Virus record (IMG/VR): IMGVR_UViG_3300037312_000757
DNA: 64,000 nucleotides
Reading direction: 5' to 3' (one strand)
DNA from: a virus
Taxonomy: Duplodnaviria; Heunggongvirae; Uroviricota; Caudoviricetes
A program made the position numbers and the translations under genes. This document shows, piece after piece, positions 3,606 through 44,404 of this stretch. A model generated the notes under the pieces. It saw only the letters and a list, made by a program, of their open reading frames with translations. It ran no database searches and was not told the origin of the DNA. Within the stretch, counting starts at the first letter, position 1. Every line of letters starts with the position of its first letter.

Positions 3606-4514
3606 TCAAGCGAGGCTGTCTTTATCAAGACAACCGAACATGCGGAGTGAAGCTTGGCGCATACGCTCACCCAGTACACGGTCATTGAACTTGTAAACGT
3701 TTATACGCATACGGCCGTAGGCGAACGGACCATCATCACCCACCAACAAGTCGACTTCACCTGTCTCTAGAGCTGCTACAGCGTCGTCAACGTCCCAGGA
3801 ATACGTGACCGATCGTTCTTGCTGGAACGGTATACTCTGTAGATGGCCGAGGTCAATGAAGAATTGTGCTTCATCCTTCAAACTCAGAAAGAACGTGGGT
3901 TCACCGTTGAAGTATCGATATACGTTGCCACGTTCGACGACTTCGAGCATGTTTTCACGCACGTATGTTGTACCACCTTCAACTTGGCGGTACTTGTTCA
4001 CACATTGTACACGATACGTGGTGATACGGTCGGAGCTGACATCGTCGTATTCAATGCTTTGCACAATGCCATATTCAAATTCACTGCGTCCACGGAAAGT
4101 GAACTTGATGAAGTCTCGTTCCCAAGCACGCGTAACAGGGAGATCAGCGATGAACGTTCGATTCTCGAGACGGTCGTCTACCACGTCGTGCCCTTCCGTG
4201 TTGCGTTCAGCGCGTGCATCGGAGAGTCGCCGATTGTATTCAGCCTTGTCAGTCATCGAGACTTTCCACATGTTGGGACTCGATGTGGTGCCGTCTTCCC
4301 ATTCGACGATAGCACCTCGGTCGATCTCGTAGATCCCAGGCTTTCGGGCCGAATAGCTGCCAATACGTGGTGAATAATGCAGAACGCGGTTCTTGCCGAC
4401 AATCACACCCTTCGTTCGATCCTTTACGGGGTCGCCTTTTTGCGCGTAATAGTCTTCACCACGATTGAAGATGACTTCGTCACCAACACGCATCACATTT
4501 TCAGTAAACGACAT
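3606..4514 (-). CDS. hypothetical protein (302 aa)
   Basis: Long ORF. RBS GGAGGTG before ATG. No recognised domain. Confidence 0.65.
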   Translation of the reverse strand: MSFTENVMRVGDEVIFNRGEDYYAQKGDPVKDRTKGVIVGKNRVLHYSPRIGSYSARKPGIYEIDRGAIVEWEDGTTSSPNMWKVSMTDKAEYNRRLSDARAERNTEGHDVVDDRLENRTFIADLPVTRAWERDFIKFTFRGRSEFEYGIVQSIEYDDVSSDRITTYRVQCVNKYRQVEGGTTYVRENMLEVVERGNVYRYFNGEPTFFLSLKDEAQFFIDLGHLQSIPFQQERSVTYSWDVDDAVAALETGEVDLLVGDDGPFAYGRMRINVYKFNDRVLGERMRQASLRMFGCLDKDSLA

Positions 4515-4515
4515 T

Positions 4516-4707
4516 TCACCTCCTGAAAGATTGACCGGCTTCGCGCAGCTTGACTTGATCGATGATAGCCGAAAGCTTGAAACCTTCTTCCATCACACGT
4601 CGTGTTTGCTCGTCGTCACGCATCAACCAGATTATGGTTGCGAAAGCCCCTCCTATCTCGATGATGCTGGCACCACCGAGAATGACGGGGAAGAGTAGGC
4701 TATTCAT
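4516..4707 (-). CDS. small membrane protein
   Basis: Start moved to MNSLLFPVILGG (hydrophobic helix) to avoid an ~70-nt overlap with the upstream gene. Weak RBS. Confidence 0.4.
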   Translation of the reverse strand: MNSLLFPVILGGASIIEIGGAFATIIWLMRDDEQTRRVMEEGFKLSAIIDQVKLREAGQSFRR

Positions 4708-4987
4708 AGCTGTATTCGGCCGGATCGACGAAACCAGCTGCGGCAACGAATAGATCATCAGCTTTGGCAAGGCTTTCGATGTGATCTTCCATTTCCAACC
4801 ATTCGAGCATACTCACGCCATCATGCTTGTCCATGGCGTCAATAGCGTGGCCACCGTTGAGGCGGGCGTCGATCTCTGCGCACACAACTTCATACATCGG
4901 ATGCATTTCGTTGGCCTCGATCTTGGCCAGCTCCAGGTCAGTCATCTTCTTGACCGACGTCAGTTGCTGGTAATCGAAATCGACCAT
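4700..4987 (-). CDS. hypothetical acidic protein
   Basis: Trimmed to Met17 (MVDFDYQQ) after GGAGAG. Promoter repeat upstream. Confidence 0.55.
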   Translation of the reverse strand: MVDFDYQQLTSVKKMTDLELAKIEANEMHPMYEVVCAEIDARLNGGHAIDAMDKHDGVSMLEWLEMEDHIESLAKADDLFVAAAGFVDPAEYSYE

Positions 4988-5415: not shown

Positions 5416-6282
5416 TCAAGTGCCTGAAACAGCAGCGTAGAGGATTTCGATGCAGACGTCTTCAGTTTCGAAGTCAACGTCACGCTCTGGGTTGTATTCA
5501 ACCAACTCAAAACCGACTAACTTGGTTTTGTCCATGACTTCGAATGCCGTAACAACTTCCCACGCATCAAGCCCATTTTCTTCTGGAGAACCAACGCCAG
5601 GAGCTTGCTTCGGGTCAATCGAATCAACATCAAACGTGATACCAAATCCGATTGTGTTCTTTGTAACGATTTCTATTGCCTCGCCCAAGCAATAGAGAAA
5701 ACCTTTCTGTTGTACTTCTTCGATACGCATGACGCGAACACCCATGCTGGCAAGCAATTGTTCCTCGCCTGCTTCGCTGCTACGGGCGCCGATCACCACA
5801 ACGTTTTCTGGCTTGAACTTGGGCAGCGCATCAGCAATGCTAGTCAACTTATCATTGCCCTTACCTAGCAAGTGAGCCAAGGGCATACCATGAGGCGCAC
5901 CACTTTCTGATGTTTCAGGTGTATGGCTGTCCAAGTGTGCATCGATCCAAATCAGGCCGATGTCACCACGATCACGGTAGGTTTTCGCTATCGCACTCCA
6001 GGTACCAATAGCACAAGAATGATCGCCGCCGATCACGACAGGGAATACTTCCCGCTTCATCACTGCATCAACTGCTGATGCCAAGCGTGGCATGTAATCT
6101 TCGACAATAGCCATCTTGGATCCGAGCGACGCATCTGACGTGACCGTTTGGCCTAAGGCGATTGTAAGTTTGTGGGATTGAAGATCTTGAAGACGTTGCT
6201 GCAATGCAGCCGGGCCAGCTTTGCACTGGACAATTCGGGCACCTTCGCCAATCTCGGCGAAGACTACTTCGATATGAGACAT
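5416..6282 (-). CDS. arginase/agmatinase/formiminoglutamase-family ureohydrolase
   Basis: Ureohydrolase signature motifs GGDHS, DAHLD and FDVDSIDP present. Start set at MSHIEVV (GGGAG 5 nt upstream). Confidence 0.8.
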   Translation of the reverse strand: MSHIEVVFAEIGEGARIVQCKAGPAALQQRLQDLQSHKLTIALGQTVTSDASLGSKMAIVEDYMPRLASAVDAVMKREVFPVVIGGDHSCAIGTWSAIAKTYRDRGDIGLIWIDAHLDSHTPETSESGAPHGMPLAHLLGKGNDKLTSIADALPKFKPENVVVIGARSSEAGEEQLLASMGVRVMRIEEVQQKGFLYCLGEAIEIVTKNTIGFGITFDVDSIDPKQAPGVGSPEENGLDAWEVVTAFEVMDKTKLVGFELVEYNPERDVDFETEDVCIEILYAAVSGT

Positions 6283-6308
6283 TAGAACTCCCAGACGATG
6301 TATGGCAA

Positions 6309-6350
6309 TTGGCACGGACTCAAGTATAACAGTCCGTGCCAATTTTTTGT
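6309..6350 (+). terminator. hairpin plus T-run oriented on the plus strand in a minus-strand block
   Basis: TTGGCACGGACTcaagtataacAGTCCGTGCCAA plus TTTTTTG. No plus-strand gene upstream. May block antisense read-through or act bidirectionally. Confidence 0.4.
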
Positions 6351-7379: not shown

Positions 7380-7733
7380 TTACTTTAAGAGAGCAGCCAC
7401 GATCGAACGAACTGTTGCACTGCTGACGCCATTTGCTTGCGCGATCTCGTAAGCAGTCTTATCGTCTATGGCTAGAACTGCTCGACCCGCTGCAAATGCA
7501 CGCTGAAGGCCAGCGAGGTCGAATGATGCACCGTGAGCCTGTTTCACATTGAGACCATACTCGTCAACTAACCAGCCCTCGAACGTAACCGCATTGGCGC
7601 ATTGAGCTTCTTGTTTGATGCGTCCCGTACCTTCGCAAACGAAACACTCTTGATCGGTACCAATATCAGGATCACGAACCATTCGTCCCGTACCGTTACA
7701 AGCAGAGCACACTTCACCAGTGTTTGCAGTCAT
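7380..7733 (-). CDS. DnaJ-type zinc-finger (2x CxxCxGxG) plus C-terminal HTH protein, putative regulator
   Basis: CSACNGTG and CFVCEGTG repeats. C-terminal helix-turn-helix-like TAYEIAQANGVSSATVRSIV. Start at MTANTG after CAGGAGAAC. Confidence 0.55.
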   Translation of the reverse strand: MTANTGEVCSACNGTGRMVRDPDIGTDQECFVCEGTGRIKQEAQCANAVTFEGWLVDEYGLNVKQAHGASFDLAGLQRAFAAGRAVLAIDDKTAYEIAQANGVSSATVRSIVAALLK

Positions 7734-7814
7734 ATTGTTCTCCTGAATGATTACCATGCCTCGCATTGTATATTCATTTGGCTAGACGTCAAGCTTTTTC
7801 ATGAATGAAAAAGC

Positions 7815-7839
7815 AAGAGCGGCCAAAACGGCCGCTCTT
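7815..7839 (-). terminator. intrinsic terminator
   Basis: GC-rich stem AAGAGCGGCC/GGCCGCTCTT followed by T5 on the minus strand, after the SBP gene. Confidence 0.6.
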
Positions 7840-7861
7840 GGATCACTACGTTCTAAAGGTC

Positions 7862-8791
7862 TTACTTCAGGTCATAGTAGGACCAAAGACCTTTGTTTCC
7901 AGCCTGCACAACTTGCCATTTCGGGTGCGTGCCGGTCGTGTCCTTCAGGTCCGGGAGTGCTTGCGCTTCGCATGCACGCAGACGTTTCAGTTGATCGATC
8001 TTCTGTGCGCTGTTGTACACACGCGACACGAGCAGAGCTTCAGTTGCGACCGTTTCGACACCGCGTTGGCCGAGGTTGCCATAGCTGACACGCGCGGGCT
8101 TGTACACTTTCGACAATGCTGCCGCTTGTTGCGGCGTCACCGTGAGCAGCTTGAAACGATTGTCGAGGCTTGCGACCGTCGAGAGCGGGGCGCCGCCGAC
8201 TGCTACGAACGCGTCGATCTTGCCGGCTTGCAGCGCTTGCGAAGCTTCGTCGTTGCTGTTGAACGTGATGATGTTGTAGTTGATCTTGGCGAGTGCCTTG
8301 ACCACTTCGGCAGTCAGCGCTGAGCCGCCCACCGCGCCAATGTTGCGGCCGTTCAGATCACCGATGTTGTTGAACACGACTTGCTTGCCGCCGATCGAGA
8401 AGCCACCGAGGCTCATGCCGCCTTCATGCACGCCGTCAGCTCGAGCGACGAAGTGAACTTCTTCGGGGAAAAGTGCCACGACAGTTCGCACGTTGTTCAG
8501 GTCGTCTTCGCTGCGTGCGCGCCAGAACAGTGCGTCGGTCTGCACGATGGCAGCGTTCACCTTGTTCTGCTCCAGCATGTCGAGGTTCGCGTTTGAGCCG
8601 TTCGACGGCACTTCTTGCAGTTGCACGCTACCGCAGCGCGATTGCAGTTCCTTGAACATGCGGCTGTAGGTCAGCTTCTGGTCACCCGTTGCAACCACCA
8701 GCGACTGTGCTTGAGCCACACCCGAGATCGCGACGATCATTGCCAGGCCCACCGATACACGCGTGATGAAACGTTTCATATTCATGTTCAC
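7862..8791 (-). CDS. periplasmic solute-binding protein, TAXI-family TRAP receptor-like
   Basis: Signal peptide (MKRFITRVSVGLAMIVAISGVAQA). ATGD..LTY...VQ.DAL pattern like TAXI/NMT1-type solute-binding proteins. GC-rich relative to neighbours. Confidence 0.6.
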   Translation of the reverse strand: MNMNMKRFITRVSVGLAMIVAISGVAQAQSLVVATGDQKLTYSRMFKELQSRCGSVQLQEVPSNGSNANLDMLEQNKVNAAIVQTDALFWRARSEDDLNNVRTVVALFPEEVHFVARADGVHEGGMSLGGFSIGGKQVVFNNIGDLNGRNIGAVGGSALTAEVVKALAKINYNIITFNSNDEASQALQAGKIDAFVAVGGAPLSTVASLDNRFKLLTVTPQQAAALSKVYKPARVSYGNLGQRGVETVATEALLVSRVYNSAQKIDQLKRLRACEAQALPDLKDTTGTHPKWQVVQAGNKGLWSYYDLK

Positions 8792-14191: not shown

Positions 14192-14545
14192 TTATACTTT
14201 TAATGCATTCTTTTCGTTAAGAAATCGGCTTGACACTACTGCGTTAAACTTGGTAATCCAAAACTGTTCCCGGCGCTTTAGGTCTTCAGCATTAGCAACA
14301 TATTCGAGCACCACACGTTCAAACTGCGTGATACCATAATGTTCAAAGATGCGCTTGAAGAACTTGCCAGAACCTCGGTAATCGTCTGTGGCTTTACCCT
14401 TGTGTGAGCCAATGTAGAACTTGTCTTCTGGAATGCATCGCCACATGTAAACGAAGCCCGCATACTCTGCGGGCGCCGTTACATTCAACGCTTGGATGTC
14501 TTGCAGCAACGGATTTTTATGGGTGGTGGAAACAATGGTCTTCAT
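14192..14545 (-). CDS. GIY-YIG nuclease domain protein (homing-endonuclease-like)
   Basis: GFVYMW...FYIGSHKG...YRGSG...E matches the GIY-YIG catalytic core. Only 117 aa, with no DNA-binding domain in frame. Confidence 0.7.
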   Translation of the reverse strand: MKTIVSTTHKNPLLQDIQALNVTAPAEYAGFVYMWRCIPEDKFYIGSHKGKATDDYRGSGKFFKRIFEHYGITQFERVVLEYVANAEDLKRREQFWITKFNAVVSSRFLNEKNALKV

Positions 14546-14582
14546 TCAACCATGTTATAGTCACCACCTTTGGTCTGTCAAA

Positions 14583-14801
14583 TTACTCCGTTGACGCAAT
14601 ACCGTACACTACTGCCCCAGCGACGTACATCAAAGGCCCTAGCAGAATGCCATAAAAGCACCAGCGTATGTATGTCCACGGTTTACCACGTAATGTGATA
14701 GAGATCGTCATCGGCAACAGGTTGAGCCGAAAGTTGTAATACAGAAAGCTTGTGAGGCCAATCAAGCCCCACACAAGCAGAAAAACAGCAAGAGGATGCA
14801 T
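14583..14801 (-). CDS. small membrane protein
   Basis: 72 aa with two predicted TM helices. Confidence 0.5.
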   Translation of the reverse strand: MHPLAVFLLVWGLIGLTSFLYYNFRLNLLPMTISITLRGKPWTYIRWCFYGILLGPLMYVAGAVVYGIASTE

Positions 14802-14904
14802 CAGAAATTACTCGAATCAGTTTCTTTGTAACCACGGAACCATACCCAGCCACCTAATGCTCCCAATACAATCACAGCTAGGAGCATATAGTCGTTTGTG
14901 GTCA

Positions 14905-15132
14905 TCACTTCCAGCCCCTGAAAAAGGACATCAACATCGCAAAAAATACACCGTAAGCGAATGTCATTGGACCGAACGCAAGCATGAGAATCACCGAGTC
15001 CAAAAACTTGAAAGGGTGTTCTGTAACCATTTGGCCTGTTCCCTTCCAGTTAATACTGGAAATGAAAAGCATGCCAATTGCACCGAGAGCGAGCCAGCAG
15101 ACAACAACCGTAGAGAGAATAGTATGCAGCAC
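14905..15132 (-). CDS. small membrane protein
   Basis: Track ORF trimmed to a GTG (VLHTIL...) 6 nt after GGAG, directly downstream of an intrinsic terminator. Confidence 0.45.
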   Translation of the reverse strand: MLHTILSTVVVCWLALGAIGMLFISSINWKGTGQMVTEHPFKFLDSVILMLAFGPMTFAYGVFFAMLMSFFRGWK

Positions 15133-15153
15133 AATAGGCTCCAATGAAAAATG

Positions 15154-15170
15154 CCAGTCTAACAGACTGG
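15154..15170 (-). terminator. intrinsic terminator
   Basis: CCAGTCTgttAGACTGG plus CATTTTTC on the minus strand. Confidence 0.5.
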
Positions 15171-15197
15171 CAACCTTCTGCAACCTAATGTGGCAAC

Positions 15198-15557
15198 TTA
15201 CTGCCGACCGCTGAGGGGAACAGTTTCCTTGCCCATACGCGCACGGAGTGCATTCTTCTCTTCTGCAATCTCGATCAGCTGGCGCCAGTAATGCATGATT
15301 TTGGAGCGCACTTTCTGCATATGAAAGTCGTCGAGTGTGCCATTGCGCAGGGCCCACTGTGCAGCCATCGTCATGTACTTCGCATCGTTTGCACGGAAAC
15401 CGATCGTGTTGTGATGCTTGGTTTCCCGATTGCGCTGTTCATCTTCCGTTTGGCGCTGGTAAATGCAGATCAAAGCACGCACAACGGCCTTGTCGTTGTT
15501 CAGCAGCAGCGAGTGAATTTCAGCTTTCTTCGCGTTCAGTGCTTGCGTCTTGTTCAT
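15198..15557 (-). CDS. hypothetical protein
   Basis: Trimmed to Met11 (MNKTQAL) after CAGGAGAGC. Promoter repeat upstream. Confidence 0.6.
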   Translation of the reverse strand: MNKTQALNAKKAEIHSLLLNNDKAVVRALICIYQRQTEDEQRNRETKHHNTIGFRANDAKYMTMAAQWALRNGTLDDFHMQKVRSKIMHYWRQLIEIAEEKNALRARMGKETVPLSGRQ

Positions 15558-15633
15558 TGTGCTCTCCTGTGTGTCTACCATGTTCACAGTATGTGTTCAT
15601 TTGAACGCACAGTCAAGCACTAAATGAACATGG

Positions 15634-15906
15634 TTACTTCAACGGAGTGCCGTCACGCATTTTGACGGGTTCATACAGGTCCCAGCCCACGATGTAGATC
15701 GGAACGATGATAGTTTCGCACAGCAGAATACCGACGATAACACTGCCTGCCGACAGTTCGTAGATCACATTGGGGTCGCGTTTTGCTTCTTGGTTGGCAA
15801 GACCAAATGCTTCGTAGGTCGTACCGTTGATGCGTGTGTCCCGCGCACAGCCGCTGAGGAAAGCGGCCATAACTAGGACCATAAAGGCTGCAAGGATCTT
15901 TTTCAT
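15634..15906 (-). CDS. putative lipoprotein
   Basis: Signal peptide with lipobox (AAFLSGC) plus a C-terminal TM helix. No clear RBS. Confidence 0.55.
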   Translation of the reverse strand: MKKILAAFMVLVMAAFLSGCARDTRINGTTYEAFGLANQEAKRDPNVIYELSAGSVIVGILLCETIIVPIYIVGWDLYEPVKMRDGTPLK

Positions 15907-15972
15907 GTTTTGTTCTTATAGTGAATGGCAAGTTGCCAAACACTAAGATACGCCTTGCTGCCTACAAGTCAA

Positions 15973-16485
15973 TTATTTGAGACGAGAGATGGCTGCCCAT
16001 TCTGAGTTGCTGAACTCCACACGAGCGCCGTTGGCGAACTCGATCACGATGTCTTCTGCGTCGCAGCTGATTTGCAGCGAGTCATTGGCATCGTAGACTG
16101 TCAAAGCGCGACGCACAGTGTTGTCATGATCCAACTCTTCCTGATACACGGCAACAGCAATGTCGCCAAACACTTGCTGAACTGCTGGCAAAGAGTCATC
16201 GCGCTTGATAAATGCTTTCTTGAGCTGGCCGTGACGGAAGCCACCAACTTCAGCGATCTTCTTGCTCAGGCGTTCCCGACGAAGGTTGAGATAATATTCG
16301 CGACGCTTGCTGATTTCACCCCAGAGTTCATCATACACTGAGCTGCTGAGACCTTGATAGACAGTTAGTTCGAACAGCCGCTCACTGAGCTCCTGCACTT
16401 GCTTCTCGTTCATGAATTGAATATCGTGCATGACTTCGTCCATGCGCTTACCTTGAAACAGTTGCTGAGCGTAATGCAATTCCAT
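15973..16485 (-). CDS. hypothetical protein
   Basis: Trimmed to Met15 (MELHYAQ) after ATAGGAGAAG. Confidence 0.6.
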   Translation of the reverse strand: MELHYAQQLFQGKRMDEVMHDIQFMNEKQVQELSERLFELTVYQGLSSSVYDELWGEISKRREYYLNLRRERLSKKIAEVGGFRHGQLKKAFIKRDDSLPAVQQVFGDIAVAVYQEELDHDNTVRRALTVYDANDSLQISCDAEDIVIEFANGARVEFSNSEWAAISRLK

Positions 16486-16555
16486 GTGGCTTCTCCTATG
16501 AATTTGCCACATGATATGCTGGTTCAACTATTGAATCAAGCGCCAAATGGCAAAA

Positions 16556-16574
16556 GGCTCCCTTTTCGGGAGCC
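16556..16574 (-). terminator. intrinsic terminator
   Basis: GGCTCCCgaaaaGGGAGCC plus TTTTGCC on the minus strand. Confidence 0.55.
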
Positions 16575-16593
16575 AGACCACTGCAATAATCAA

Positions 16594-17178
16594 TTACTTG
16601 AAAACTGCTACTGATGCCTTTGTGTTCAGACCGACATTATTTTCAGAATGAACCATTTCGTTATCCTTGAACTGCGCAATGTTCAGAACAGTGTACATAC
16701 CTTTTGATGCATGAGTTTGGTCGTGGAATGCTTCATATGTTTCGCCAACTTTAGCACCAACACCACCACCCGCTGACACTACAAAGAGAATGCGATTGCG
16801 ACCATTCTCTTCTTTACCGCAAATATAAACAGTGCCGCTACCCCACTCTGAAATAGCTTCAGGCAACGTTACCACACGCTTGCCATACAGTTCCATAGTA
16901 GCTGGTAGAATGATCCAACCACGTGACATACGGTCCCAGCTTGCTTCATCAAGCTCGTCCATGTCGTCGTCAACTAGATCACTACGTGTGAGGTCAGCTA
17001 CGCTGAAGCTATGATCGCCATCAAACATACGCACGACTGCGAAATACTTCTTTGAGTCGAAACCAACGATCTCACCAACTTCACCTTGGCCAAAGACATT
17101 ACCAGTTACCTTGACTTCGTCACCAATGTTCAACTCGTCTGGGTTGTATGATTCAGAAATGATTTCAAAATATCGCAT
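16594..17178 (-). CDS. hypothetical protein
   Basis: 194 aa. RBS GGAGAT. Terminator hairpin downstream. Confidence 0.6.
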   Translation of the reverse strand: MRYFEIISESYNPDELNIGDEVKVTGNVFGQGEVGEIVGFDSKKYFAVVRMFDGDHSFSVADLTRSDLVDDDMDELDEASWDRMSRGWIILPATMELYGKRVVTLPEAISEWGSGTVYICGKEENGRNRILFVVSAGGGVGAKVGETYEAFHDQTHASKGMYTVLNIAQFKDNEMVHSENNVGLNTKASVAVFK

Positions 17179-17264
17179 AAAGATATCTCCTTGTGCGATT
17201 ATTTATGTTGGGATATAAAGATGGCTCCTACAGGAGCCAATGCGGAATTACTTCGGGAAGAGCA

Positions 17265-17888
17265 CTATTTCGACGTGACGTTGCGCTCTTCGTCACGTGC
17301 TACCATGTCCCACTTATAGTCAAACAGGTAGTTGTGGGCGTTGCCCTTGAGGTTGTAGATCTGATCTGATACGGATATCTTAACAAACGTGCGATACCCC
17401 GCCACAGCTCTTGTGGACGTGCGGTGAACTATTTGGTTATCAAGCCGCAGCAATGACTTAGGCGAATATGTGACGACGTTGCCTTCATCAGCTTGCGCAG
17501 ACATATCAAGCATCGACTGATGCTCGTCTTCGCTTATGTCAAACGTCTGGTTGCAAAACTCGGTGCTATTTTCCGGTGCGCCGTCATACCATATGTAATT
17601 CAGGTCATCAGTACCGAATCCATCGATATGCCATCCCGGACGATTACCCAGGTTTTCAGGAGTGACATAAAGGTGCTTGGCGGTGATGTAGATGTATGGA
17701 TCGAAGATGAACCTGGTCTCCGCAGCATCACACATCGCTCTGTTGATCAAGGGCTTGAAACACAACAGATTGTCTGGTATGCGAATACCCTTACCAGGGA
17801 TCTGAATAGGCAGATACTGCACAAACATCATCTCGGCTTCGTCGCACTCAATAATGCCCATATCCCGAGGAAGTCCACCAACAATCAT
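17265..17888 (-). CDS. hypothetical protein, possible 2OG-Fe(II)-oxygenase-like (HxD...H)
   Basis: 207 aa. WHIDGFGTDD ... IVHRTS could be an HxD/H facial triad. Weak call. Confidence 0.45.
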   Translation of the reverse strand: MIVGGLPRDMGIIECDEAEMMFVQYLPIQIPGKGIRIPDNLLCFKPLINRAMCDAAETRFIFDPYIYITAKHLYVTPENLGNRPGWHIDGFGTDDLNYIWYDGAPENSTEFCNQTFDISEDEHQSMLDMSAQADEGNVVTYSPKSLLRLDNQIVHRTSTRAVAGYRTFVKISVSDQIYNLKGNAHNYLFDYKWDMVARDEERNVTSK

Positions 17889-17952
17889 TTGTTCACCCCT
17901 TATTAGTTGCCATGTTCAAATGGTACAACCACCTGAACATGGTAGCAAGACC

Positions 17953-18159
17953 TCACTGAGGATTTACCTCCTTGCCAACTTCACGGTAAAACTTCTTCAT
18001 GACCTGCTCGACCGTCAGGTGCGAGAAATCCGGATACTCGAACCCAGGAAACATGGCGTTGAGCGCTGATGCAAACTCCGGGTCCTCGTCGTAAATCTCC
18101 GCCACAGTGAGGAACGGCAAGTAATCATCCACCACCTTCCAAGCTTCATGCAGTGTCAT
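17953..18159 (-). CDS. hypothetical protein
   Basis: Start at MTLHEAW after GGGGGAG. Degenerate promoter repeat upstream. Confidence 0.5.
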   Translation of the reverse strand: MTLHEAWKVVDDYLPFLTVAEIYDEDPEFASALNAMFPGFEYPDFSHLTVEQVMKKFYREVGKEVNPQ

Positions 18160-18171
18160 GATCACTCCCCC

Positions 18172-18426
18172 TTAATAAAGATGAACGTTGGAACACAAAA
18201 ATTCATCAACCGCTTCAAAACCATTGTCCTTCTCCGCCTGAGCAATCAACTCCTCAACTTCCTTACCAGGAGCACCCAGAAACATGGACAACCGGTTAGC
18301 ATCCAATACCATCTCGATGGCTTCATCGTTACCATCACACTCGTCTACGTCCGGAGCAATGGCCTGCCATACTTGCTGCATAGGACCACGTACCTTCTTG
18401 AGAAACTCCCCATCAAGCTTGATCAT
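18172..18426 (-). CDS. small acidic protein
   Basis: Trimmed to MIKLDGEF after GGAGAGG. Confidence 0.5.
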   Translation of the reverse strand: MIKLDGEFLKKVRGPMQQVWQAIAPDVDECDGNDEAIEMVLDANRLSMFLGAPGKEVEELIAQAEKDNGFEAVDEFLCSNVHLY

Positions 18427-18632
18427 CTCGTCCTCTCCTATGTCGTCTACCATATCATTATGGTACGTTCATATGAACCATCTATCAAGGCATTCTTCAG
18501 GAATAATTCATGGAGGTTATTAACTTTATCTAAGGAACACCATGATCCTATAGGCAAAGTATATGGAACCCAGGCAGAACTCTGAAAACATGATGGCACC
18601 CAATGGGTGCCATCATGTCATGTTGATACTGC

Positions 18633-18824
18633 TTAGAGATCGCCGCGGAGCCAGCCCTTGAGACGTAGTTCTTCTTCCTGCTCTTCGTTTATCTTCAGGG
18701 CGATATTCGTGTAGTTACCGACCGGGTTTGCTATTGACACGACGGCGTCAGCCAGGTTATGTCCATTGACGAACGCTTGAACGTTGAACCAGTTGCCCGG
18801 TACTGTGATGACGACTAGCTTCAT
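18633..18824 (-). CDS. hypothetical small protein
   Basis: 63-aa ORF overlapping the next by 4 nt. Confidence 0.45.
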   Translation of the reverse strand: MKLVVITVPGNWFNVQAFVNGHNLADAVVSIANPVGNYTNIALKINEEQEEELRLKGWLRGDL

Positions 18825-19018
18825 GCCGGCACCAAATCAACAGCAGCGACTTCGATGATGTCGATGAACGGAACACGACCGATGCGAACTTGGTAAAACT
18901 CCATGCCCTGGCGTTTCATACAGCGCATCTTGATGGAGCCCGTTCGACCTAGCATATTGCCGTAATCCTTCACCGTGTCGGTGGCGATCTTGACGATTGC
19001 ATTTTCCTTGAAGGTCAT
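18821..19018 (-). CDS. hypothetical small protein
   Basis: 65-aa ORF. Confidence 0.45.
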   Translation of the reverse strand: MTFKENAIVKIATDTVKDYGNMLGRTGSIKMRCMKRQGMEFYQVRIGRVPFIDIIEVAAVDLVPA

Positions 19019-19030
19019 CTGTTCTCTCCT

Positions 19031-19213
19031 TTATTCGTCGTTGGGGTCGCGATAGTTCTTCATCGCGTTGTATGTTTCAGAACAGCAGAAAGAACAGCAT
19101 ACAGGAGCGCCGCAAAGCAAGCATCCCATCTCACGATACGAGTACACGGTGTTGTGCCCGCAGTGCTCACACTCTTCGCCCGTGCCCTTCTTCTCTTCCG
19201 TGATCGTTGCCAT
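19031..19213 (-). CDS. Cys-rich zinc-finger-like small protein
   Basis: CEHCGH ... CLLCGAPVCCSFCC. Confidence 0.5.
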   Translation of the reverse strand: MATITEEKKGTGEECEHCGHNTVYSYREMGCLLCGAPVCCSFCCSETYNAMKNYRDPNDE

Positions 19214-19222
19214 GTTTTCTCC

Positions 19223-19399
19223 TTATTGAGTGAACGTGTAGAAGATGCCGAACAAATTCAGCTCTTCAATGTAGGCGCGAGCGTCGAGTGTGAAGAACTT
19301 GCCCTTGCTCATCATGATGTTTTCATGCAGACGAACGTTGTCCGCACACACGTTGAACTTGGACATCTGGGACATATTAATCGACAGTGTACCAGCCAT
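19223..19399 (-). CDS. hypothetical small protein
   Basis: Trimmed to MAGTLSI 6 nt after GGAG. Promoter repeat upstream. Confidence 0.45.
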   Translation of the reverse strand: MAGTLSINMSQMSKFNVCADNVRLHENIMMSKGKFFTLDARAYIEELNLFGIFYTFTQ

Positions 19400-19487
19400 G
19401 TTCATCTCCTGTTCATCTACCATGTTTCATATGGTATGTTCAAATGAACAGAAGAGCAAGCGGTATTTTTGCCAGAATGAAAAAAAG

Positions 19488-19877
19488 AAGGATCATGTGC
19501 AGGAGGACATGATCCTTCAGAGGCCTTGCTGAAGTTACCAGACGGGCATGCCTGGTAGAAACACGATACAGTCACGCAATACGTGGCGCAAGCATAAAAA
19601 GAGGGCCATAGCGTTTATTCTATGGCCCTTGTACCTACGCGTGTGCGGGAGCTACTCCACACGTTACCAGCGTAACGCTATGAAAATGCGAAATCAATAC
19701 AAACCTGTCATAAAAAGGAGACCATGACTTTCATCATGGTCTACGCAAGGGATCTTCGCTGTACGTGTGGAACGTACAAGACAACAATAATATTTTTGCA
19801 ATCAATTGTCAAGGCGACATGAAAATGAACCGTCTAGCGCAAAAAAAGAGGGATCATGTTTACATGATCCCTTTTAG
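19488..19877 (-). ncRNA. array of four tandem intrinsic-terminator units, candidate sRNA genes
   Basis: Four related hairpins at 19488-19517, 19601-19630, 19717-19744 and 19848-19877. Each is preceded on the plus strand by an A-run plus GAGGG, so on the minus strand each reads stem-loop then T5-7. Spacing is 113-131 bp with structured unique segments between them. No ORF in the 480-bp region. Confidence 0.4.
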
Positions 19878-19936
19878 GTTCCGGTTGTTCAGAAACTATC
19901 ACGACTTGTCCCTGGCCGTGACAACTTACTGTACAG

Positions 19937-20416
19937 CTAGTCTTGCTCGAAATCAACGTTGTTTTCTTCAATCACGTCAATTACTTCACTAGTAAAATTC
20001 TCAATCCACAGCGCAATCATTTTGCAAGCTAAAACAATCGAATGCGGCATGTTCCAGCATTCCTTCTTCACTTCATCAAAGTCGCTGTTGAACATTTCAA
20101 TATGGTCGTCAAGCTCATTCTTCCATGATTCTGGTGTTGCCGCGATTGTATTGCCAGGGTAGTTCGCATTCCACTCATGACGCTTTGCTTCAGTGTAATT
20201 GTTCTCTATACGCTGTACAGTTACGTCATACCACGTGTCAAGAACACCATCGACTAGTGAGTGCTCAGATTCATCACCATCCATGTGGCCGTCACTATAT
20301 CGAAACCACACTTCTTGATTTTCAACATAGACAGAGATGCCAGTTGCGTGATATGAACCGCAGCATTCACAGTCTTGCAGAGGTCCTTCGTAGTTCACGA
20401 TTTTGATTGTTGTCAT
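19937..20416 (-). CDS. hypothetical protein (CxxC pair near N-terminus)
   Basis: 159-aa ORF with no SD. A TATAAT sits immediately upstream of the ATG. Confidence 0.55.
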   Translation of the reverse strand: MTTIKIVNYEGPLQDCECCGSYHATGISVYVENQEVWFRYSDGHMDGDESEHSLVDGVLDTWYDVTVQRIENNYTEAKRHEWNANYPGNTIAATPESWKNELDDHIEMFNSDFDEVKKECWNMPHSIVLACKMIALWIENFTSEVIDVIEENNVDFEQD

Positions 20417-20439
20417 TATTATAACCGTGCAAAGAAAAA

Positions 20440-20458
20440 GCCAGTCTACATGACTGGC
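20440..20458. terminator. bidirectional intrinsic terminator
   Basis: GCCAGTCtacatGACTGGC flanked by an A5 run and TTTTATTTTG. Confidence 0.6.
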
Positions 20459-20489
20459 TTTTATTTTGTGTAAATGTGATGCTTACTTA

Positions 20490-20741
20490 TTAGTTGTCTC
20501 CCTCGCCATCTTCATCATCTTCATCATCTTCATCTTCGTCGTTTTCATCGCGGATGAGAGCGTTGAGCACGAGGTCATCAAAAGCGTAACGAGGCTCTTC
20601 AACATCAAAGTCCAGGAGCTTGCCGAAAATACCCGAGTCATCACCAACACCAGATCGACCTAACACTTCTTTGTCGAGCGGATACTTCTTCAGAATTGCC
20701 AAGGCCGCTTCCATCTTTGCAATCAGTTCACCGTTCACCAT
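20490..20741 (-). CDS. small protein with poly-acidic C-terminal tail
   Basis: Start MVNGELIAK after AAGGAGA. DEDEDDEDDEDGE tail. Confidence 0.5.
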   Translation of the reverse strand: MVNGELIAKMEAALAILKKYPLDKEVLGRSGVGDDSGIFGKLLDFDVEEPRYAFDDLVLNALIRDENDEDEDDEDDEDGEGDN

Positions 20742-22348: not shown

Positions 22349-22372
22349 AAGGCCTCAGCGAAAGCTGAGGCC
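22349..22372 (-). terminator. intrinsic terminator downstream of the tRNA cluster
   Basis: AGGCCTCAGCgaaaGCTGAGGCCT followed by TTTTCTTTTG on the minus strand. Confidence 0.6.
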
Positions 22373-22405
22373 TAAATTCATCATGGTAAACGATGAAGGA
22401 GAAAA

Positions 22406-22482
22406 CTGGTCTCGGGTGTGGGATTCGAACTCACGTCACCTGGTCCCAAACCAGGCACACTAACCAGGCTGTGCTAACCCGA
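22406..22482 (-). tRNA. tRNA-Pro (anticodon UGG)
   Basis: Hand-folded cloverleaf: acceptor CTCGGGT/ACCCGAG, D-arm GCAC/GTGT, anticodon stem CCTGG/CCAGG with loop TTTGGGA, T-loop TTCGAAT, encoded CCA. Confidence 0.8.
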
Positions 22483-22611
22483 GATATGTAGTTCCGTGTT
22501 CATGGTTGTATCACAATCGTCTACAGCATACATGAACAGAGTGTCGACCCTCTTGGAACTACGGGGGTGGAAGTTCCGCATCCGCGTAGACTTGGAACTT
22601 CCGATCACTGT

Positions 22612-22623
22612 GGGGGGGGGGGG
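22612..22623. repeat. G12/C12 homopolymer tract inside the tRNA cluster spacer
   Basis: 12 consecutive G on the plus strand between tRNA-Pro and tRNA-Ala, within a highly structured ~165-nt spacer. Confidence 0.7.
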
Positions 22624-22651
22624 CCAGCTTTCGCCAGCGCCCTTAAAATCT

Positions 22652-22727
22652 TGGTGGAGGTAGACGGGATCGAACCGACGACCTTTAGCTTGCAAAGCTA
22701 CTGCTCTCCCAGCTGAGCTATACCCCC
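22652..22727 (-). tRNA. tRNA-Ala (anticodon UGC)
   Basis: GGGGGTATAGCTCAGCTGGGAGAGC... with G3:U70 Ala identity pair, anticodon loop TTTGCAA, T-loop TTCGATC, CCA. Confidence 0.8.
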
Positions 22728-22728
22728 A

Positions 22729-22804
22729 TGGTACATCCTGACGGGATCGAACCGCCGACCTTCGCCTTGTAAGGGCGTTGCTCTACCAGCTGAGCTAAGG
22801 ATGC
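22729..22804 (-). tRNA. tRNA-Val (anticodon UAC)
   Basis: GCATCCTTAGCTCAGCTGGTAGAGC..., anticodon loop CTTACAA, T-loop TTCGATC, CCA. Only 1 nt from tRNA-Ala. Confidence 0.75.
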
Positions 22805-24771: not shown

Positions 24772-24850
24772 AATGCGGGCTCCTGTTATAATTGGCATCG
24801 ACCACGCAAATATTTAGTGGTGAAAAACGCCAATTAACAGCGCACACAAG

Positions 24851-25039
24851 ATGAGCGACAATAAAGATAAAAAGGCTTCATTGTGGGAAGCCACGAACAT
24901 GGGCTTCAACGACCGAGACACCGCCAAGTCACCAGAAGACGTTCTGGCAGCCCTCCAGTTGATTCGAGAGGCCCGGAAGCAGCTTGATGCGGCAGAGGCC
25001 CTATTGCTCGGAATTCAAGCCAAACTACAGGTGAAGTGA
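24851..25039 (+). CDS. hypothetical small protein
   Basis: 62-aa plus-strand ORF overlapping the next by ATGA-type junction. Confidence 0.45.
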   Translation: MSDNKDKKASLWEATNMGFNDRDTAKSPEDVLAALQLIREARKQLDAAEALLLGIQAKLQVK

Positions 25040-25260
25040 TGGACTACAGAATTGAGATCAAGGTCTCAGGGCCAGGTATGACGATCAACACTGAAATGGC
25101 ATTGATCGAAAAAGCGCTGCGTGATGCAGGCATTCCTGTGGATGTGGTGAACGAACACCCGGACTCACCGACCAGCAATCAGCTGAGTGAGAGTCACATC
25201 GAGTATTGCAGGAAGCGAGGTGTGAAGCTGGTGGCTAATCACTGCCCTTGGGGTGGTTGA
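25036..25260 (+). CDS. hypothetical small protein
   Basis: 74 aa. RBS AGGTGA. Followed by a GC hairpin plus T-run at 25270-25299. Confidence 0.5.
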   Translation: MMDYRIEIKVSGPGMTINTEMALIEKALRDAGIPVDVVNEHPDSPTSNQLSESHIEYCRKRGVKLVANHCPWGG

Positions 25261-25269
25261 AACACTGAC

Positions 25270-25288
25270 GGCGTCCCCTGGGGACGCC
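25270..25288. terminator. terminator between convergent genes
   Basis: GGCGTCCCCtggGGACGCC, with T-rich sequence downstream on the plus strand. Confidence 0.5.
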
Positions 25289-25309
25289 GTACTTACTTTT
25301 GGAAAGGAA

Positions 25310-42662: not shown

Positions 42663-43169
42663 TTACGCCTTCTGCTGTAGTGCTTCGAGGACCAGCGGGT
42701 GAATGTACTTTGCGACTTTCACTTCCCAGTTGTCGAAGCCGACAAACCCGCGCACCGCTGATGAACTGATACGAGTTTTGTCTTCGGGCGGGATAACGAA
42801 AACATGGTCGATTTCGCTTTCGATATCCATGTTGAACCCTTGAATGTCTTTCTCGTAATCGAAATCGACACCGTTCCGAATACCGCGCATGATTGTGGTA
42901 ACGCCCAAGCGCTTCGCCACGCTGACGGTGAATTCATTTTCGACAACTACAAACTTCAGCTTTGCGAACAGTTCAGGTGTCAGAGAATCAGCTAGTACAC
43001 GACGAGCCAGGTCTTCACGCTCAACAGCATTGAACATGCCCTTCTTTGCTGGATTGTAGGCGATTGCAAAGTAGACTTCATCGAATGTCTTGCAAGCTCG
43101 TTCGACCATCCACTCATGGCCACGGGTGATGGGGTCGAATGACCCCGTTGTCATACCAATCGTGTACAT
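42663..43169 (-). CDS. coaD: phosphopantetheine adenylyltransferase (CoaD/PPAT)
   Basis: TGSFDPITRGHEWMVERA ... RGIRNGVDFDYE ... ISSSAVRGF aligns along the full length of CoaD (T/HxGH motif and ISSS motif). TAATG-coupled to coaE. Confidence 0.8.
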   Translation of the reverse strand: MYTIGMTTGSFDPITRGHEWMVERACKTFDEVYFAIAYNPAKKGMFNAVEREDLARRVLADSLTPELFAKLKFVVVENEFTVSVAKRLGVTTIMRGIRNGVDFDYEKDIQGFNMDIESEIDHVFVIPPEDKTRISSSAVRGFVGFDNWEVKVAKYIHPLVLEALQQKA

Positions 43170-44404
43170 TAGATCCAACGCCCCCATTTCTTGATGATGT
43201 TGTTTACGTTGCGCTTCGCGTTGTCCTCGAATTGCGAGAAGTGCGGCGAATGGAAAATCCGTTCACGATCAGCAAACGTCTTCATTGCCACGACTCGACC
43301 ACGAGCAAATGTGATGACGTCGTATTGGTCTTTGAATTCTTGATACACCGCTTCGTCGAACGCATTAGCTTCTGCTTCAGTTCCGCCGAGCATCATCAAG
43401 TCCACGTCCAAGAACAGTTCGCAATCAGCTTTCAGTTCAGGATTCGAAAGCAAGTATGGAGACGTGATCGCATGGCCTTTAGTCGCCATGATGAATTCGG
43501 CAACCGTGGCCAGTGTCGGTATACCAGCTTCAATCTCGAAGCCCAGTGCTTCTGGCAGATGCTCCCTGAACTGTTCCATCATGAACTTGACACTCCACGC
43601 TTCGTTGAAGGCGTACAGGTCCTTGTAAGCGCTGTAGACAGCGTCGTGATAGATGATTGCCAGTCCCGCAATGCCCGGATAGTTAAACTTTTCGACGTTG
43701 TTCATGAACCAGCGGTACATCTGGCGTGGATGATCAGCGTTATGCCAGTGCCGACTCGTATCGAAATACTGCTTCATTGCATTGTCGAACAGAACACCAG
43801 CTTCCTTTTCGTGACCGTAGAATGCACCCTGGAAAAACAAACGCAGATCTTGCAGCGAGATACGATCAGCAATGCGCTTCGCCTCGTCCTCCAGATCCTC
43901 GAGAGAAATGTTGGTATCAACCGTGTCGTCGGCCATTGCGATCTTGACACGCGTGCTCAGTTGCGCTGCGCGGATGCGTTCGATCTTCTCCTGCGTGAAG
44001 CCATCTCGCGCCATCACACGCTGCATCTGCACGTCATCTGCGCAGTGACACGTGATGACAAAGTCATACTTGCCGCTCTTGCCCATTTCGTACAGAAGCG
44101 GGAACTCCATCACCAGATGTTTCTTGTAGTCGTAGTTCGCCAGCTTCCAACGCATTGTGTCCTTGGTCAGGTCTTCCAACCACAGACGATCGGCCGAGTT
44201 GTTGAACACGATGTCCGACACCTTCTTGCGGTCGGACGTGCCGAAGCGATTCTCGAGATCAAGCTTGAACGCTTTGTCGTTGTAGAGGTCGCGAACCATG
44301 TCGTCGATGCTTGCGTGCTCGTAGTTTGCCGCCAAGTGTTTCAGCAGCAACTTCGTGAATGTTGTCTTGCCACAGCCGATGTTGCCAGTGATGGCTACTC
44401 GCAT
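43169..44404 (-). CDS. coaE: dephospho-CoA kinase (CoaE) fused to a C-terminal HD-domain phosphohydrolase
   Basis: N-terminal MRVAITGNIGCGKTT P-loop and CoaE-like blocks (IDDMVRDL, FPLLYE, DDTVDTN). C-terminal HWHNADHP...IIYHDAVY HD motif. RBS GGGAGA. Confidence 0.8.
   Translation of the reverse strand: MRVAITGNIGCGKTTFTKLLLKHLAANYEHASIDDMVRDLYNDKAFKLDLENRFGTSDRKKVSDIVFNNSADRLWLEDLTKDTMRWKLANYDYKKHLVMEFPLLYEMGKSGKYDFVITCHCADDVQMQRVMARDGFTQEKIERIRAAQLSTRVKIAMADDTVDTNISLEDLEDEAKRIADRISLQDLRLFFQGAFYGHEKEAGVLFDNAMKQYFDTSRHWHNADHPRQMYRWFMNNVEKFNYPGIAGLAIIYHDAVYSAYKDLYAFNEAWSVKFMMEQFREHLPEALGFEIEAGIPTLATVAEFIMATKGHAITSPYLLSNPELKADCELFLDVDLMMLGGTEAEANAFDEAVYQEFKDQYDVITFARGRVVAMKTFADRERIFHSPHFSQFEDNAKRNVNNIIKKWGRWI

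Follow-up and report, generated by a model that had tools for sequence, protein, structure and literature searches.

The window examined here, 64,000 nucleotides of viral DNA (Caudoviricetes; IMG/VR record IMGVR_UViG_3300037312_000757), comes from an uncultured phage with a genome of ~524 kb. Read along the minus strand, it contains a gene-free gap of 537 bp that follows the stop codon of a 159-amino-acid (aa) gene (19937) and extends to the probable start of the gene after it (19399). The gap holds four tandem intrinsic terminators, which delimit units A to D. Each terminator has its own sigma70-like promoter site and a hairpin at about the predicted transcription start (+1), and for this reason we interpret the units as autonomous minigenes. 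We propose, with a probability of about 0.55, that the region is a tandem array of four small RNA (sRNA) minigenes without an open reading frame (ORF), which would be expressed early and give stable products, and that these are RNA-cargo versions of the promoter-early stem-loop (PeSL) cassettes of T4-type phages. The building blocks, namely intrinsic terminators, sigma70-like early promoters, PeSL-type cassettes, and phage sRNAs, are known. What appears to be new is their combination: tandem ORF-less units of promoter, 5' hairpin, linker, and terminator, carried as the RNA cargo of a shuffling cassette system in a phage lineage with ~0.5-Mb genomes.

Anatomy of the four units

The original prediction placed four hairpins in this stretch, 113, 116, and 131 bp apart. 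All four are where it put them and at that spacing, and on the minus strand each reads as a 10- to 12-bp stem followed by a run of 5 to 7 T (Table 1). Two internal hairpins that it had named, at 19536-19557 and 19760-19778, also exist. Its description of the units as related held for the terminators, which form the pairs T1/T4 and T2/T3, and failed for the unit bodies. T1 and T4 match at 18 of 19 nucleotides (nt) and have the stem GGATCATGT in common, and T2 and T3 are 73% alike across 26 nt. The bodies of units A to D are mutually dissimilar, with no homology to each other beyond the terminators. The array also lacks the near-identical direct repeats with unique spacers of constant length that define CRISPR; its hairpin terminators come in two different pairs, lie 113 to 131 bp apart, and each carry a T-run, and the earlier statement that this is not CRISPR was correct.

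The terminators are clustered beyond chance. The 64-kb window has ~10 strong terminators, 4 of which fall within the 390 bp of the array, and the 2.5-kb neighbourhood has 8 terminator-like sites versus 2.2 ± 1.6 in shuffled sequences. The fold of the whole region gave a z score of -6.3. Among all fetched loci (~1.05 Mb), clusters of at least three terminators were found only in the window array and in one relative of the same lineage. No tandem same-strand terminator array was present in 916 kb of other-phage loci around homologues of trna.2, where the two terminator pairs that were flagged sit inside coding sequence.

A search for TTGNNN-N16-18-TANNNT found one sigma70-like site of the form TTGNNN-17-TANNNT in all four units, ~70 to 80 nt upstream of the terminator. 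The -35 element of unit A falls in the last codons of the 159-aa coding sequence (CDS), and its spacer holds the stop codon of that gene. Terminators and promoters follow one another closely, with the next promoter beginning 4 to 36 nt past the preceding T-run (T1 to the promoter of B, T2 to that of C, T3 to that of D, and T4 to the promoter of the following gene). In the four window units, a hairpin begins 4, 4, 4, and 5 nt past the -10 element and therefore lies at or within 1 to 2 nt of the predicted +1. A hairpin of at least 6 bp located 4 to 8 nt past the -10 was present in 9/9 units tested from this phage and its relatives; of the promoter-like sites in the rest of the window, 9/88 on one strand and 6/63 on the other had one. 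The first promoter scan covered three window units, seven units of relatives, and an orthologous copy in relative L040; 10 of the 11 segments matched, and the shuffle control gave a mean of 1.75 of 11 and a maximum of 6 in 2000. The last segment (unit u1 of relative L093) and window unit A matched in later scans, made after that count.

The four predicted RNAs have a common layout: a 5'-terminal stem-loop of 6 to 10 bp comes first, then a mostly unpaired linker of 11 to 20 nt, and last the terminator hairpin with its U-tail. In addition to unit A, T1 would terminate the transcript of the 159-aa gene. As predicted from sequence, the units have the attributes by which sRNA genes are recognized: their own promoter, an intrinsic terminator, no ORF, and a length of 50 to 300 nt. 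The original prediction had suggested an array of short structured RNAs, each ending at its own terminator. The promoters, the hairpins at +1, the folds, and the recurrence of the design in relatives agree with that suggestion, and the expression of such RNAs is a prediction. Its claim that the region is free of ORFs was confirmed, in the sense that the frames present span 3 to 11 codons or 20 to 59 aa, have no ribosome-binding site, and, where longer, run through terminator stems. Independent gene calls on an identical 2-kb Logan contig placed zero genes within the gap.

Table 1. Coordinates and makeup of the array, its flanks, and units in related phages (window positions unless a relative is named)
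Feature	Coordinates	Strand	Description
tRNA block	22350-22804	-	tRNA-Val(TAC), tRNA-Ala(TGC), tRNA-Pro(TGG), then strong terminator 22373-22350 and cassette-like promoter
Terminator T0	20462-20431	-	hairpin AAAAGCCAGTC-ATGTA-GACTGGCTTTT and T-rich tail, between the 85-aa and 159-aa genes
159-aa gene	20416-19937	-	adjoins the ORF-less units on their upstream side and travels with them
Unit A promoter-like site	19956-19928	-	-35 TTGATT (19956-19951), 17-nt spacer, -10 TACAGT (19933-19928)
Unit A predicted RNA, ~83 nt	19923-19841	-	5' hairpin 19923-19897, linker, T1 19872-19849, U7 tail 19847-19841; predicted fold -29.1 kcal/mol, z -3.96 versus shuffles
Terminator T1	19872-19849	-	AGGGATCATGTAAACATGATCCCT+CTTTTTTT
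Unit B promoter-like site	19812-19784	-	TTGACA-17-TATTGT
Unit B predicted RNA, 67 nt	19778-19712	-	5' hairpin 19778-19760 (UGUACGU/ACGUACA), linker AGCGAAGAUCCCUUGCGU, T2, U5 tail; z -5.67
Terminator T2	19742-19719	-	AGACCATGATGAAAGTCATGGTCT+CCTTTTT
Unit C promoter-like site	19697-19669	-	TTGATT-17-TACGCT; weakest -10 of the four
Unit C predicted RNA, 68 nt	19663-19596	-	5' hairpin 19662-19643 (GUGUGG/CCGCAC), linker, T3, U5 tail; z -3.73
Terminator T3	19629-19602	-	AGGGCCATAG..CTATGGCCCT+CTTTTT; 8-nt loop
Unit D promoter-like site	19591-19563	-	TTGCGC-17-TATCGT; abuts the T-run of T3
Unit D predicted RNA, 78 nt	19557-19480	-	5' hairpin 19557-19536, 17-nt linker AACUUCAGCAAGGCCUC, T4, U7 tail; z -4.72
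Terminator T4	19518-19487	-	GAAGGATCATGT..ACATGATCCTTC+TTTTTTT; 8-nt loop CCUCCUGC, anti-Shine-Dalgarno-like
Cassette at downstream edge of array	19467-19400	-	-35 TTGCTC 19459-19454, spacer palindrome GTTCATTTGAAC, -10 TACCAT 19436-19431, AGGAG 19410-19406
Other cassette copies, examples	42317-42261, 29528-29472, 20807-20750, 5425-5370; the edge copy as 19467-19409	-	
L039, first unit			GCTTGCTA-17-TATGAT, hairpin GUGUGC..GCACAC, terminator
L039, second unit			TCTTGACG-17-TAGTAT, hairpin GUGCG..CGCAC, terminator
L093, three-unit array	4395-4765		after an unrelated gene
L093, single unit	3646-3760		
L094, single unit	7614-7726		also in nine population variants

Almost every small gene of the window is preceded by a different promoter. 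We found ~37 copies of one conserved promoter cassette of ~60 bp, all on the minus strand, with the consensus gCTTGAc-N5-GTTCAnnTGAAC-nTAyCAT-nnGAAcATGGTAaAC-AGGAGA-N5-ATG, and nearly every copy directly precedes a (small) gene. A hidden Markov model (HMM) of the cassette had no match in 19480-19936 with E values of up to 100 allowed. The promoters of the four units are thus plainer, sigma70-like ones; GTTCATTT precedes the unit B promoter, as it does in the cassettes. The copy at the downstream edge of the array aligns with L039 9771-9830. It probably drives the next gene, which encodes 58 aa (19399-19223, minus strand) and has AGGAG 6 nt before its likely start, and it marks the downstream edge of the module described below. 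Where terminators occur, they commonly lie just upstream of cassette promoters (7840-7748, 22373 onward, and T4 with its cassette, 19518-19400).

Non-orthologous cassette copies, including those in L039, are ~80 to 90% conserved. They contain the palindrome TTCAnnTGAA in the spacer between -35 and -10, in many copies accompanied by a third half-site, TTCATTTG, ahead of the -35, and a second palindrome, TACCAT..ATGGTA, across the -10 and the start. These palindromes look like operator sites of a regulator. Pattern scans for the cassette in IMG/VR and GTDB genomes gave 0 matches. The promoter of the tRNA genes, TTGACT-17-TAGAAT (L039 7370-7398; L093 ~1163; L094 ~2449), is not of the cassette type and has a hairpin ~8 nt past its -10, as in the ORF-less units. 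Because of this resemblance, the non-coding units of the lineage may share a style of promoter and 5' hairpin distinct from that of the protein genes.

Related phages and the movable module

Relatives of the source phage were recovered through the small flanking proteins. Megablast and blastn comparisons with cultured phages gave no DNA similarity, IMG/VR searches with both flanking and two neighbouring proteins gave only distant trna.2 homologues without synteny, and a scan of JGI metagenomes with the 204-aa neighbour protein gave distant relatives only. Among the recovered loci, L039 is syntenic with the window at ~70 to 75% nucleotide identity.

Compared with L039, the window carries an insert of ~1.03 kb that consists of terminator T0, the 159-aa gene, and the four units; window positions 20509-19450 correspond to ~28 bp in L039. 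T0 is the upstream edge of this ~1-kb module, which L039 lacks at the orthologous site. There, the stop codon of the 85-aa gene is followed immediately by the promoter cassette of the next gene, with no terminator, and the insertion point lies exactly between the stop codon and the -35 of the cassette. L039 does have a homologue of the 159-aa gene 2 kb away (7718-8188; 46% aa identity), directly after the terminator of tRNA-Pro. This homologue is followed by 323 ORF-free bp with two units of the same design (8189-8445). Since the gene is trailed by such units at this other place as well, the 159-aa gene and its units behave as one movable module. The original prediction missed this context: on the sequence comparison, the array belongs to a mobile indel module, and the early region that houses the module is hyperplastic and made up of PeSL-like terminator/promoter cassettes.

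Units of the same layout recur in other relatives, with predicted RNAs of 67 to 92 nt. Spans containing ORF-less promoter-hairpin-terminator units were seen at L093 4395-4810 and 3637-3822, L040 1990-2160, L039 8189-8510, and L094 7605-7790. The single unit of L093 is 90% identical overall to its orthologue in L040 (promoter, 97%; 5' hairpin, 100%; linker, 77%; terminator loop, 33%), whereas the flanks are less similar (upstream CDS, 59%; next promoter cassette, 63%; downstream CDS, 71%). The comparison with related phages, which had been proposed as a check, thus supports the design: same-design units recur, and one of them is conserved above its surroundings, as expected of an sRNA gene. It does not extend to the window's own units, for which no homologue was found. 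In a structural comparison, unit C and the two L039 units share GUGYG/CRCAC stems and AGRGCCA terminator bases, and the MAFFT alignment was not in register.

Several short similarities were also seen. An 8-mer, ACTTCAGC, and a CCUCC terminator loop are common to unit D and L093 u2, a post hoc observation marginally above chance; likewise, ACUUCAGC is shared in the linkers of these two units, which have CCUCC in a large terminator loop, as a possible seed with marginal statistics. AAGAYCC occurs in the linkers of unit B, L039 u1, and L093 u1 and could be a seed, again post hoc and marginal. The 8-mer and AAGAYCC were not used as evidence. The terminators fall into sequence families that cross phages. 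One, whose loop (A)TGTAGA is conserved, was seen in three phages at places that are not orthologous (window 20436-20462, L093 6509-6533, and L094 6921-6949); its stems vary by compensatory changes (GCCAGTC/GACTGGC, GCCGTTC/GAATGGC, and GCCATTTC/GAATGGC). A second family, AG(G)CCATGA-loop-TCATGG(C)CT, includes T2 of the window, L094 3840 and 7693, and L093 4484, and T2-like AGGCCATGA stems are present in L093 and L094.

The 159-aa protein, which is encoded on a JGI contig of 523,837 bp, and its neighbouring proteins have no Pfam or PHROG match. A confident AlphaFold2 (AF2) model of it (predicted local distance difference test score [pLDDT], 86.6) has three long strands and four helices and matched no PDB fold at E < 0.1, so the model offers no clue to a protein-RNA partnership. 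The idea that this protein is an RNA-binding partner of the units was rejected, given the missing fold match and a 50% homologue in the distant contig L002 that has no ORF-less unit downstream. The gene preceding the L093 array is unrelated to the 159-aa gene. The ORFan family to which the protein belongs (window; L039 7718-8188; P0002 = L002 10001-10531) has an invariant C-E-C-C-G-S motif near the N terminus. In both the window and L039, the gene has neither a Shine-Dalgarno sequence nor a promoter cassette and starts 15 to 20 nt past a terminator (TATAATAATG and GATAATG, respectively).

Competing explanations and a possible mode of action

Because of the indel-module and PeSL-like context, explanations in which the array is a by-product or an insulator stay alive. 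In one of them, the units would be PeSL-type regulatory or recombination cassettes without functional RNA cargo, left or multiplied by modular shuffling; their transcripts would be by-products, and the elements would insulate neighbours and offer homology for exchange. We regard this account as possible, if somewhat unlikely. The genome is built from ~37 minus-strand copies of one promoter cassette, and its terminators commonly lie just upstream of cassette promoters, which matches the description of PeSLs in PMC4122927. The array with the 159-aa gene is an indel relative to L039 at a point exactly between a stop codon and a cassette -35, and the same gene module occupies another L039 site. 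Terminator families are common to phages at non-orthologous places, unit bodies are not conserved across phages, and the literature describes PeSLs near indels that are degraded, with multiple stem-loops and weak copies of the -35 and -10 elements. Deletion between PeSLs, however, should leave one PeSL and not a tandem series with unique structured inserts of 35 to 50 nt, and the units hold no remnant of the cassette spacer palindrome, Shine-Dalgarno sequence, or start codon. Decay likewise does not explain a +1 hairpin in every unit or the uniform RNA length, and the unit found in both L040 and L093 is conserved above its flanking genes.

If the four terminators instead formed a stack, they would serve as a transcriptional insulator against read-through from the tRNA/early operon, which is strongly transcribed on this view, into an operator-controlled downstream gene, and the promoter-like sites would be incidental. 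Tandem terminators are known to tighten termination (e.g., rrnB T1T2), the downstream cassette has operator-like palindromes, and the mRNA from the 159-aa gene has its natural end at T1. Insulation would not require spacings of 113 to 131 bp with unique structured inserts, however, nor would it place all four promoter-like sites at an exact 17-nt spacing with a hairpin at about +1. Moreover, most gene junctions in the window have no terminator at all, and there is none at this junction in L039. An insulator is therefore improbable. The region could also be a recently decayed coding segment (pseudogenes) or a set of micro-peptide genes, since the hyperplastic region is full of small ORFans and L039 u1 opens with an ATG..TAA frame of 11 codons. 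This is highly improbable: no unit has a ribosome-binding site or a consistent frame, the peptides would have 3 to 9 codons or lie within terminator stems, comparison with genes of the relatives gave no similarity at the protein or DNA level, and decay does not yield four intact terminators with four correctly spaced promoters. Micro-ORFs and pseudogenes were rejected for the missing ribosome-binding sites and for frames that run through terminator stems.

Several observations weigh against the proposal of four sRNA minigenes. The -10 elements are mediocre (TACGCT, TATCGT, TACAGT, and TATTGT). The closest syntenic relative, L039, lacks the array at the orthologous site, and the window's four units have no detectable homologue in any of the relatives (blastn at word size 7; nhmmer with --max). 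In the L040/L093 pair, promoter and 5' hairpin are conserved above the linker, which would fit a DNA-level or recombination explanation as readily as an RNA seed. A covariance-model search, which the original prediction had put forward, failed to identify an RNA family: with Rfam 15, the whole window gave only the three tRNAs at the gathering score, and 19350-19990 gave nothing above 20 bits at E ≤ 10, CRISPR-DR families included. The relatives also gave tRNAs only. Five linker and loop seeds were compared with 119 phage translation-initiation regions by RNAduplex, and their best matches were no better than those of shuffles. The CCUCCUG loop of T4 in unit D pairs generically with phage ribosome-binding sites (mean, -10.4 versus -8.7 ± 0.6). 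The alternative function suggested for the array in the original prediction, an RNA-processing module, found no supporting evidence in these searches.

If the sRNA minigene reading is correct, the units would be early genes read by the polymerase of the host, like those behind the ~37 neighbouring early-type promoter cassettes, and the products would be four discrete RNAs of about 83, 67, 68, and 78 nt. Stable small RNAs classically carry a stem at the 5' end and a terminator stem at the 3' end, given the 5'-end dependence of RNase E and RppH. In units A to D, these two stems may protect the RNAs from 3' exonucleases and from decay that depends on the 5' end. The working surface could then be the exposed linker together with the terminator loops of T3 and T4, which at 8 nt are unusually large (CCUCCUGC in unit D); this surface would pair with target RNAs, most likely those of the host, or bind host RNA-binding or defence proteins. 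The units sit between terminator/promoter composites, and they would move as modules and turn over quickly, as the RNA-cargo counterpart of "PeSL + ORFan" cassettes.

A more speculative version, which we consider rather doubtful, is that the array consists of "RNA morons" that evolve fast and are shuffled horizontally. They would act early as decoy- or guide-like RNAs, their hairpin-plus-tail form imitating RNAs of host immunity or regulation (for example, CRISPR repeats, antitoxin RNAs, or sRNA-chaperone ligands), and giant phages of this lineage would swap them at terminator/promoter junctions as T4-type phages swap ORFan cassettes. They would then represent a previously unrecognized, RNA-only class of phage accessory or counter-defence cassette. 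The 22-mer of the unit D hairpin was absent from 185,579 GTDB species genomes, which were searched for host mimicry. ToxI-like organization, with tandem identical repeats of ~36 nt beside a toxin endoribonuclease gene, was likewise not found; there are no such repeats, and the neighbouring proteins have no Pfam or PHROG match.

In virulent and giant phages, non-coding RNAs have hardly been explored, and stretches of this kind stay blank in the output of annotation pipelines. The four units supply concrete, testable transcript coordinates. If they are expressed, large phages would carry mobile cassettes with small-RNA cargo, shuffled at the same terminator/promoter junctions as ORFans, and rapid turnover among related phages would point to a host-specific role in takeover or counter-defence. 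Metagenomes could be mined for candidate phage sRNAs with a simple signature, an ORF-less stretch in which TTGNNN-17-TANNNT leads into a hairpin at +1 and a short linker joins this hairpin to a terminator.

Known systems and genomic surroundings

PeSLs of T4-type phages consist of a stem-loop terminator, a sigma70-like promoter, a Shine-Dalgarno sequence, and an ATG (Arbiol et al. 2010, PMC2839356; Comeau et al. 2014, PMC4122927). They are concentrated in hyperplastic regions and have been implicated in modular shuffling (PMC4122927; PMC2839356). The array resembles them in having a stem-loop terminator directly upstream of a sigma70-like early promoter. It also resembles them in location: both are found where the early part of a large myovirus-like genome related to T4 is hyperplastic and such terminator-promoter elements recur many times, and both lie at indel or module boundaries between close relatives. 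The terminator consensus of the nt-1/KVP40 PeSLs, A3-4G3-loop-C3T3-4, resembles T1 and T3. Unlike PeSLs, units A to D end in a hairpin and the next terminator, and only T4 with its cassette (19518-19397) leads to a Shine-Dalgarno sequence and a start codon. Since the promoter of each unit leads to a 5' hairpin, a linker, and the next terminator, the cargo would be a structured RNA of ~70 nt and not an ORF. PeSLs are also conserved repeats of ~100 bp; here, the conserved repeat is the cassette, with ~37 copies in the genome and none in 19480-19936, and only the terminators of the units form sequence families. PMC2839356 makes no mention of tandem ORF-less PeSL units or of small RNAs.

The predicted RNAs are like the 77-nt OOP RNA of lambda and prophage sRNAs (PMC12197685) in that each would be a short, phage-encoded non-coding transcript with a dedicated promoter and an intrinsic terminator. 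Those known sRNAs are single genes, mostly antisense or in temperate phages, whereas here there are four tandem sense-strand units with no antisense partner. In a limited literature check, the 2025 review of phage sRNAs (PMC12197685) contained no occurrence of "tandem," "jumbo," or "phage T4." The defining property of RNA anti-CRISPRs (Racrs; Camara-Wilpert et al. 2023, PMC10651486) is that they mimic CRISPR repeats. They resemble the units in being small ORF-less phage RNAs in accessory regions, with a hairpin plus a tail as the active part, and differ in that the units gave no Rfam CRISPR-DR match at E ≤ 10 and the unit D hairpin is absent from GTDB species genomes.

The array is also similar to bacterial tandem sRNA clusters, in which genes of ~70 to 110 nt lie head to tail, each with a promoter and a Rho-independent terminator. 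Clusters such as Listeria LhrC1-4, Pseudomonas PrrF1/PrrF2, and Escherichia coli OmrA/OmrB are made up of paralogues with homologous sequences and shared seeds, and the C/U-rich loops or linkers of LhrC pair with ribosome-binding sites. In contrast, the four units have only terminator families in common and are encoded by a giant phage of virulent type rather than by a bacterial chromosome. T4 itself has two stable small non-coding RNAs without known function, species 1 and 2 (rnaC/rnaD), which are located in its tRNA region and are processed from the tRNA operon transcript. The array is likewise near tRNA genes and a trna.x-type ORF of a T4-related phage, yet its units lie 2.5 kb downstream of the tRNAs and each have their own promoter and terminator.

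The minus strand is the coding strand of almost all genes around the array. Three tRNA genes lie 2.5 kb upstream, and the gene for the 204-aa neighbour protein, a distant homologue of the T4-type trna.2 family, lies 0.9 kb upstream. This trna.2-like gene is 1 kb downstream of the tRNA block (22350-22804), a layout that mirrors the tRNA region of T4. The other sizeable apparent gap of the window, 24799-25309, holds small plus-strand ORFs with their own terminator and is not a second array, which leaves the array as the only long non-coding stretch of the window apart from tRNAs. This plus-strand island (24851-25290) amid the minus-strand region has ORFs of 62 and 74 aa and a GC-rich terminator (25268-25290), and it matches oppositely oriented genes of L039 (2741-3410).

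The distant phage contig L002 has a stretch of ~5 kb almost without called genes (14384-19875). Here, the tRNA block Leu(TAA)-Met-Leu(TAA) is present twice (14451-14840 and 16819-17264), and a run of seven tRNAs follows (19527-20504). L002 also carries an IS605 OrfB/Cas12f-like fragment at 2581-2940. Elsewhere in the window, three genes of auxiliary type were noted, all on the minus strand: 814-1878 encodes a DUF475/TerC-family membrane protein (E = 5e-95), 5416-6342 encodes an arginase-family protein (E = 3e-55), and 43169-44404 encodes a dephospho-CoA-kinase-like P-loop kinase fused to a phosphohydrolase domain.

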